The translations under genes were made by a program, and so were the position numbers. A stretch of DNA of 63,556 nucleotides, filler included, from Squatina squatina (taxonomy: Eukaryota): the NCBI GenBank assembly GCA_031763465.1. It is 4 parts of 4 records of this genome, joined end to end, with 100 filler letters (N's around TTAATTAATTAA, not from the genome) between each part and the next. Parts side by side here need not be neighbours in the genome. Positions count along the whole stretch, not along the records: positions 51,514 to 63,556 come from JARFOE010000016.1; 3 more parts are not named here. The stretch is one strand, 5' to 3'. Positions 57,658-59,780 of this stretch are shown here, in pieces; position 1 is the stretch's first letter; each line of letters starts with the position of its first letter. Under the pieces are notes generated by a model that saw nothing but the letters and a program-made list of their open reading frames with translations, was not told the DNA's origin and made no database searches.

Positions 57658-58546
57658 GTAAATAATCTAAGCACCAGATATTTCATCATAACATTGTGTT
57701 GGTGAACTTTGTGTTCCTCCTAGGGCTGTTGAAATGCAGCAGCTGGTGAGGCATTATCTAGGACCCTTGATGCCACTGCCTAAACGTGGTGATCGTTAAC
57801 ATGGAGCTATCTAGTTTAGCACACTGACGGTACAAACTTTGAATGTGCTTATTTANNNNNNNNNNNNNNNNNNNNNNNNNNNNNNNNNNNNNNNNNNNNN
57901 NNNNNNNNNNNNNNNNNNNNNNNNNNNNNNNNNNNNNNNNNNNNNNNNNNNNNNNTCCATTTTGTTTGACAAGACTCCATTTTAAGGCCCAGATTATTGT
58001 CCAGAAAGTCTCAATTTGGGCACAATTCTACAGCTTGGTGTCCTATTTGGTCCCGAGCTCAGTTTCCAAGCCCATATCATCTGCGTCACAAAGATTGACT
58101 ACCACTACCATTGTAAAATCGTCCGTCTCTGCCCCTGCATCAGCCCATCTGCTCCTGAAACCTTCATCCATGTCTGTATTGCCTCCAGACTCGCCTATTC
58201 CAAGGTGCTCTTGGCCGGCTTCTCATCCACCCTCTTTATGATCATACAAAACCCTGCTGTCCATAGCCTATCCCACACGATCCCAATGACCTATCACCCT
58301 TGTGCTTGCTGACCTAAATTGGCTCCCAGTCCCCCAACACCTCAAATTTAGAATTCTAATCCTTGTGTTTAAATTGCTTGCCAATCCCTATCTCTGTAAC
58401 CCTTCAAGAACACTCCATTCTTCCAACTCTGACCTCTTCTACATCCTGAAACCCCTTCAACACTTTAGGCCTGAAGCTTTGGCATTTCCTCCCTAAACCT
58501 CTCTGCTTCTCCACCTCTTCTTTTAAGACAGTCCTTAAAACTCAAT

Positions 58547-58915
58547 ATACAACATTATGAGGGGTTTTGATAGAGCAATTAGGGAGAAACTGTTTCCTCT
58601 GACAAGTGGGTCAGTAACCAGAGGTCATAGATTTAAAATAATTAGCAAAAGAACTAGAGGGGAAATGAGGAGAAATTATTTCACAGAAGGTTGTTATGAT
58701 CTGGAATGCACTAACTGAAAGGGTGGTGGAATCAGATTTTATAGGAACTTTCAAAAGGTAATTGGATATGTTTTTGAAGAGAACTAATTTGCAGGGTTAT
58801 GGGGTTAAAGCTGGGGTGTGGGATTAAATTCGACAGCTCTTTCAAAGAGTTGGCACAGGCATGACTGGTTGAATGGCCTACTTCTGTGTTGTAAGATTCT
58901 ATGATTCTATTCTTT
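58547..58915 (+). mobile_element. CR1 LINE 3' fragment with ATTCTATG tail, directly upstream of the MMAA exon
   Basis: IMRGFDRAIREKLFPL..TRGHRFKI; tail GATTCTATGATTCTATTC. Confidence 0.88.
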
Positions 58916-59156
58916 GATTCTTTTTGATAGTTTACTAATCTGTTACCCATTGTTTGTATGGCCGCTTCAGATACTTTGTGAAACCTGGTTGCCAAGAGAT
59001 CACTGTAGACTACAGTTTTTTTTAACGTGAATTAGCAGTATTAGGACGTGGAACATTTCAAAATTGCAACATTCTTGAAATGGTGTCAAATATAGTTGTA
59101 CTATATTTCATGAAAGAAATTGATTTCAGTAAGCATTTTGCTATTCCAAATTTCAG

Positions 59157-59327
59157 GATCGCTCTTGGGTGACAAAACACGTATGACTGAACTTTCAAGG
59201 GATATGAATGCTTATATCCGTCCATCACCCACTTTGGGTACATTGGGAGGAGTAACCAGAACCACACAGGAAGCGATTATTTTATGCGAAGGGGCAGGAT
59301 ATGATCTAATTCTTGTAGAAACTGTCG
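59157..59327 (+). other. MMAA: Isolated intact MMAA exon (171 nt, phase 1/1) nested in the last MKRN2 intron
   Basis: tttcAG acceptor, GTAAGT donor; (G)[56 protein letters not shown](G) carries the MeaB/MMAA GDKTRM, RPSP..GTLGG and ETVG motifs. No other MMAA exon seen in the window. Confidence 0.93.
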
Positions 59328-59780
59328 GTAAGTTAATCAGTGCTTTTTTTTAATCAACTTAATTTTGCACTGATTTTGAAATCCCAAATTGCACCGTACC
59401 CCTGGTTTGTAGCTTTTTGATTATTTTAAGATTTAACATTCAAGCTATCCTGACGGCCTGTTACATTCGCCTGCAATTGACATTAGGTGGTTATAGCCCT
59501 CTTTGTAATTTGTGAAAGTAGTAGAATGAGTTATTTAATTCATTACTTTGAGAACAAATTGCATCCATTTCAGTCCAAGCAACTATTGAGCATTGCCATT
59601 GGCAAGTTAGGATGATTCTCCCAAAATTTAGTGAACTTATTCCCTTGGTAAAAAAGGAACTGAATACTACCTGATTAATATTTTTGCAATAAAAATAGTT
59701 CATAACTTGTCTGCAATTATATATTTTAAAATAGGTTCTGGGGGAAAAAAAATGGTGCATTTGTTTTCTTTAACCTGCAG

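Follow-up and report, generated by a model that had tools for sequence, protein, structure and literature searches.

The question raised by the MKRN2 locus of Squatina squatina is how an exon of MMAA, a gene of B12 metabolism, came to lie in the last intron of a ubiquitin ligase gene, and whether it has any effect there.

Identity and Setting of the Exon

In the window, by which we mean the whole 63,556-nt stretch of DNA analyzed, the last four MKRN2 coding exons (51514-51649, 53663-53773, 57513-57657, and 59781-59963) join into an open frame. The MKRN2 exons of the window are 84-100% identical to shark makorin-2 queries; for exon 51514-51649, tblastn gave 98-100% identity with four of the six shark MKRN2 queries. 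The intron between the last two exons (57658-59780) is phase 0 and holds the exon under study. The features of the host gene and of this intron are as follows.

51514..51649, plus strand: MKRN2 coding exon of the RING region, truncated at its 5' end by a join in the window; found by tblastn with shark MKRN2; GT donor
53663..53773, plus strand: MKRN2 coding exon; found by tblastn with shark MKRN2
57513..57657, plus strand: MKRN2 penultimate exon, last C3H finger, donor AGG/GTAAAT; covered by RNA contigs of two relatives
57856..57955, no strand: gap of 100 N inside the host intron, the N count not giving its true size
58113..58542, minus strand: interspersed repeat fragments, with 69-75% matches elsewhere in the window and very high depth in relatives
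58550..58914, plus strand: LINE-like repeat fragment (3' end of the element); in relative A the MMAA-exon contig includes its final ~60 nt
58915..59156, plus strand: MMAA-type intron 5' of the exon, with acceptor; on the exon contig in relatives A and B, absent from RNA contigs
59157..59327, plus strand: orphan MMAA exon, 171 nt, phase 1/1; its ends are those of the native MMAA isoform, of the open frame, and of the RNA contigs
59184..59186, plus strand: TGA, the first stop that the MKRN2 frame would meet in the exon, 141 nt ahead of the last junction
59328..59351, plus strand: first 24 nt of the downstream MMAA-type intron, donor included, with T8 at the end; contigs of A and B match to 59351 and are unlike it thereafter
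59352..59358, no strand: 7-nt junction that the contigs of both sides leave unmatched; an insertion boundary, the scar of a ~300-nt deletion, or a chimeric join
59359..59780, plus strand: MKRN2-type 3' part of the last intron; on the last-exon contig in relatives A and B
59781..59963, plus strand: coding part of the last MKRN2 exon (60 aa, with RLWDFI motif and TAA stop)

The orphan exon is bounded by an acceptor reading TTTCAG/GAT and a donor reading TCG/GTAAGT, and the MMAA reading frame is open across it from 59159. Its translation matches the Pfam family MeaB (PF03308; E 3e-21) and human MMAA (2www; 51 of 56 residues alike), the latter at E 5e-29 and therefore not by chance; the closest MMAA among the matches listed is that of Heptranchias, with 54 of 56 residues alike, an affinity that suggests a squalomorph shark. 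We take it to be the equivalent of human MMAA exon 4. The splice signals retain AG and GTAAGT, with 12 pyrimidines among 17 positions and a branch-like TTGAT at -34. The claim of the first-pass annotation that an MMAA exon has been captured inside an MKRN2 intron is borne out by the splice-site ends, the frame, and the Pfam and human matches, and the stretch 59157-59327 is confirmed as one intact MMAA exon. It shares a single gap-free stretch (57956-60104) with the last MKRN2 exon. A tblastn search with 10 MMAA proteins gave no further MMAA exon in the window below E 0.3, which rules out a nested MMAA gene in the sequenced part.

MMAA and MKRN2 lie on different contigs, unequal in length, in 20/20 annotated cartilaginous fishes, so the source locus is normally distant. 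This count comprises species with both proteins listed, in searches that kept the best 120 matches each within set length limits; Carcharodon, Hypanus, and Pristiophorus, for which just one protein of the pair came with a contig, were left out. For Pristiophorus japonicus, no MMAA was found among the matches listed, though its MKRN2 (P0247) appeared, and this blank may come from database coverage or an unusual gene model. The identity of the exon and the 20/20 separation point to a distant-locus origin of the kind seen in templated insertions, the location of MMAA in Squatina squatina itself being presumed.

Predicted Consequence of Exon Inclusion

As the earlier annotation had it, the phase 0 host intron and the phase 1/1 exon do not agree, and spliced translation confirms that inclusion would read DRSWVTKHV followed by a stop. 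Five stops lie in the exon in this frame, the first of them 141 nt ahead of the last junction. A stop more than 50-55 nt upstream of the last junction should trigger nonsense-mediated decay (NMD); at 141 nt the TGA lies beyond that distance, and the conditional claim that the exon, if included, would send the transcript to NMD is upheld.

The arguments for an actual regulatory role fared less well. The donor of the orphan exon had been described as nearer consensus than that of the host, which is true of the intron side (6/6 vs. 5/6) but not of the exon side (1/3 vs. 2/3); both donors (GTAAGT and the GTAAAT of MKRN2) match 7/9 consensus bases, and this tie rules out the argument from donor strength. 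The acceptor region differs from relatives A and B at 59127, 59129, and 59133, with TTAAT at -28 in the relatives vs. TCAGT here, plus one added AG. The proposal that the exon tunes the MKRN2 level is thus left without support: no inclusion was seen, the donors are equal, and the acceptor region differs at three places. The further proposal, a truncated ligase, is at odds with the NMD idea, and its product would lose 60 residues that include the WDFI motif, which is present in 147/148 makorin-2 proteins. No read-through tail of the kind that exon inclusion would produce occurs in those 148 proteins (0/148).

Flanks and Splicing in Relatives

Sequence runs of relatives were compared with the window (4 of 21 listed runs, all contigs, 80% likeness; the comparison lists 40 of 287 differences and 15 of 173 joints). 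In the DNA runs of relatives A and B, a single contig runs from the upstream intron across the exon and 24 nt into the downstream intron, to 59351, beginning in relative A at 58853, within the LINE-like tail (an element that we presume, from its tail pattern, to be of CR1 type). The last MKRN2 exon lies on a second contig, which extends from 59359 or 59360 to 60104. MMAA-type genomic DNA therefore lies to the left of the junction and MKRN2-type DNA to the right, with seven unmatched bases between them. Because the MMAA intron flanks match the relatives' DNA, the insert is genomic DNA; a processed retrocopy is ruled out, since the lone exon is flanked on both sides by intron that matches the relatives' DNA and not their RNA.

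Two runs guessed to be RNA (relatives A and F) contain a direct joint 57657>59781 with GT..AG ends, within unbroken contigs of 3346 and 3430 nt (depth 110.8 and 39), which shows that an MKRN2 form skipping the exon position exists in two relatives. The orphan exon appears in these RNA-type runs in a separate contig, aligned over 59155-59329; in relative F this contig is 768 nt long, with unlike flanks of 359 and 234 nt. As the flanks read AG/ and /GT, unlike the GG/ and /TT of MKRN2, the contig represents an MMAA-type mRNA. No contig with 57657>59157 or 59327>59781 was found in the two RNA-type runs, contigs being prone to drop rare isoforms; the 10 bins beside the junctions hold the listed contigs alone. 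This result does not amount to absence, since NMD would deplete the isoform and the relatives may lack the copy.

Among the contigs listed for the DNA runs of A and B, none crosses 59352-59358. Past the match, the MMAA-side contigs carry tails of 165 (A) and 150 (B) unlike letters; those on the MKRN2 side open with 166 and 181, so that the unaligned tails sum to 331 in A (165+166) and 331 in B (150+181). These equal sums are a hint of neighboring contigs broken 15 nt apart in a stretch of ~300 nt that the window lacks; their arising by chance we put, by estimate and not computation, at a few percent. The depth of the exon contig exceeds that of its neighbors 1.5-1.6 times in A and 2.3-2.7 times in B, as if two near-identical copies had been merged by the assembler, these being one figure per contig and not a copy number. 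The DNA runs of A and B each have only one exon-bearing contig; the tail sums hint at a shared arrangement, yet with a single such contig the copies would need to be kept alike. In the bin 59319-59407, depth is above that of the listed contigs in both DNA runs (23.2 vs. 15.2 and 7.45 vs. 3.69), a surplus that may come from short chance matches.

State of the Exon

The exon has barely decayed. It differs from the MMAA-type RNA contig of relative F at 5 of 175 nt; the upstream MMAA-type intron differs from relative A at 23 of 197 listed places, and two parts of the MKRN2 intron at 13/161 and about 41/422. Under neutrality, so low a divergence of the exon has P = 0.0004 at a 10% rate, and about 0.05 if only the Squatina lineage drifted. 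The copy is therefore young or has been kept alike. An old neutral copy beside a separate working one is rejected, the exon being too little changed and the relatives showing one unbroken contig.

At position 37 the exon encodes Q (codon CAG, two changes from AAY), where N stands in 217/218 MMAA proteins; Q37 is found in 0/218 MMAA proteins of close relatives and in 2/343 more distant homologues. Together with the three branch-region changes, Q37 hints at relaxed constraint. A copy that is young, or that has been refreshed from MMAA, fits best. Neither a chimeric nor an identical protein match was returned by the representative protein search, and the exon pattern had 0 matches in metagenome contigs.

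A copy confined to this lineage and one shared with relatives A and B are about equally likely. A shared insertion kept like MMAA needs gene conversion or selection and has a low prior for that reason; a lineage-specific insertion requires the tail sums to be coincidence.

Origin of the Exon and Competing Explanations

The exon is probably a real duplicated fragment that is normally skipped and at most leaks into NMD as noise. We propose that MMAA genomic DNA was copied, at the level of DNA or of unspliced RNA, into the last MKRN2 intron, possibly by a templated insertion or a small duplicative transposition. The copied piece would begin no later than 58853, in the LINE tail, and take in the upstream intron, the whole exon, and at least 24 nt of the next intron, and the working MMAA gene would reside at another locus. 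MKRN2 would splice 57657 to 59781 and skip the copy, as seen in the two relatives and presumed for Squatina squatina. With AG and GT kept, the exon could occasionally be included; the leaked mRNA, its stop 141 nt ahead of the last junction, would be removed by NMD, which would render the copy nearly harmless and allow it to persist with no regulatory role. The gap-free, repeat-free right junction, the hints of relaxation, and the tail sums suggest that the insertion is real. Should the copy be older and shared, as the tail sums (331 and 331) would have it, plain neutral decay does not explain it.

That the insertion is an artifact, with the animal's working MMAA exon misjoined at 59352-59358 to the contig of the last MKRN2 exon and then scaffolded, is unlikely. 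The assembly is heavily broken up, with 39 N runs over the 63.6 kb of the window, no listed contig of A or B crosses the seven bases, both sides of which continue in unlike letters, and a divergence of 5/175 would suit a working exon. A gap of 100 N can also hide whole exons, as seems to be so for RAF1 residues 457-601, so that the gap at 57856 does not prove that its two sides lie close together; since not all such gaps are small, the left link to the penultimate MKRN2 exon is weak. The junction, however, holds no repeat to cause a jump in the assembly path, Q37 and the branch-region changes are unexpected in a working exon, and the equal tail sums suggest that the two sides adjoin in two relatives too. 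We regard as distinctly improbable a regulated poison exon, in which controlled inclusion and NMD would set the MKRN2 level, with selection or gene conversion with MMAA maintaining the copy in several sharks. In its favor, neither splice site is damaged, the stop geometry suits NMD, the exon is more conserved than its flanks, and the tail sums and contig depth would fit two merged near-identical copies with one in MKRN2; but no inclusion appears in the RNA-type contigs of relatives, a recent origin from a working MMAA exon explains the conservation equally well, the donor offers no advantage over that of the host, the branch region appears to have drifted in Squatina squatina, and depth is a single number per contig, which does not count copies.

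It is scarcely credible that the exon in the MKRN2 intron is the sole working copy, with MMAA interleaved with MKRN2 and RAF1 or its mRNA trans-spliced. Relatives A and B do have a single exon-bearing contig each, identical over 59157-59212 to the MMAA-type RNA, including a shared G at 59212; by assembly-graph reasoning, a diverged second copy sharing 55 nt should forbid so unbroken a contig, and the tail sums again suggest adjacency. The lack of a Pristiophorus MMAA among the best 120 matches per search, with its MKRN2 present, would also agree, but this may reflect database coverage. Against it, 51514-63556 contains no neighboring MMAA exon, the following MMAA intron would need to span the last MKRN2 exon and enter RAF1, and the raised exon-contig depth speaks against a single copy. 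Extended to several sharks, we assign a low probability to the two readings jointly, i.e., that the MMAA mRNA uses the exon in MKRN2 or that a second copy is maintained as an NMD switch; a second copy kept near-identical to working MMAA as such a switch for MKRN2 is by itself quite improbable, and that the exon is the very copy used by the MMAA mRNA, interleaved or trans-spliced, is more improbable still. We return, then, to the duplicated and normally skipped fragment.

Relation to Known Systems

The orphan exon resembles an internal exon of MMAA (MeaB family, PF03308) in its boundaries and in 54 of 56 residues shared with shark MMAA; unlike the native exon, it stands alone within another gene and has Q for a near-invariant N. 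Templated sequence insertions (TSI or TSIP), as outlined in PMC5110952, likewise place sequence of a distant locus in a new position, and the right junction, with no poly(A) or target-site duplication and with seven unmatched bases, recalls class 2 of that account. The left boundary of the insert falls among repeats or in the gap, and no direct repeat was evident at its flanks. In contrast to the experimental inserts of 73-414 bp described in PMC5110952, the shark insert is at least 500 nt long and includes an entire exon, in sense orientation and with its two splice sites. Class 2 insertions as described there would be the closest model of its origin.

The likeness to poison exons such as that of Smndc1, described in PMC11357089, lies in a cassette with a premature stop before the junction in the gene of an RNA-binding protein; the SRSF3 and TRA2B poison exons are described with the same geometry. 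Those exons have been shown to be included, NMD-sensitive, and autoregulated, as PMC11357089 relates for Smndc1, whereas the shark candidate derives, unlike the known cases described there, from the coding exon of another gene. If included, it would behave as a poison exon does, but judged by the features of the known cases it cannot be classed with them. Alu exons held down by repression and NMD (PMC5115870) are comparable as foreign intronic inserts that can be exonized and are cleared by NMD; the source here differs in being a host coding exon with ready splice sites, not a retroelement that gains them. At the level of titles and abstracts, we found in the literature no poison exon taken ready-made from another gene's coding sequence, and publications naming both MMAA and MKRN2, judged by title and the start of the abstract, contained nothing related.

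As a skipped stowaway, the exon is a modest but clean case of a whole coding exon, splice sites included, tolerated in a foreign intron. Frame mismatch and NMD would hide the insert, and such tolerance could supply the raw material of exon shuffling. If the relatives share the copy, selection or gene conversion is needed to keep it alike while introns diverge by 8-12%; and if either the maintained or the interleaved reading were true, one exon would tie a B12-metabolism gene to a ubiquitin ligase.

Neighboring Features of the Window

RAF1 lies on the minus strand, tail to tail with MKRN2, a layout described as usual in vertebrates, with makorin-2 and antisense RAF1 reported in PMC3022923. Two RAF1 exons are present on this strand, at 60637-60774 (human residues 602-642) and 62442-62615 (human residues 399-456). 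Since the relatives' RNA contigs extend ~1.9 kb beyond 60104, the last RAF1 exon is within reach of the MKRN2 3' UTR, which corresponds to the known antisense overlap. The interval between these exons (60775-62441) gave no match to RAF1 residues 457-601, which probably fall within the 100-N gap at 61535-61634, deletion being the alternative. The C-terminal residues of RAF1 (ending in TRVVAC and a stop; 60637-60654, minus strand) lie beyond the human RAF1 alignment, which spans 41 of 46 residues.

MKRN2 residues 1-253 are absent upstream of the join at 51414-51513, which indicates that the blocks are noncontiguous DNA. This join and those at 21658-21757 and 37133-37232 each consist of a 12-base linker, with stop codons in every frame, flanked by 44 N on either side. 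A tandem array at 44194-45714 comprises 76 copies of a 20-nt unit with 84% matches.
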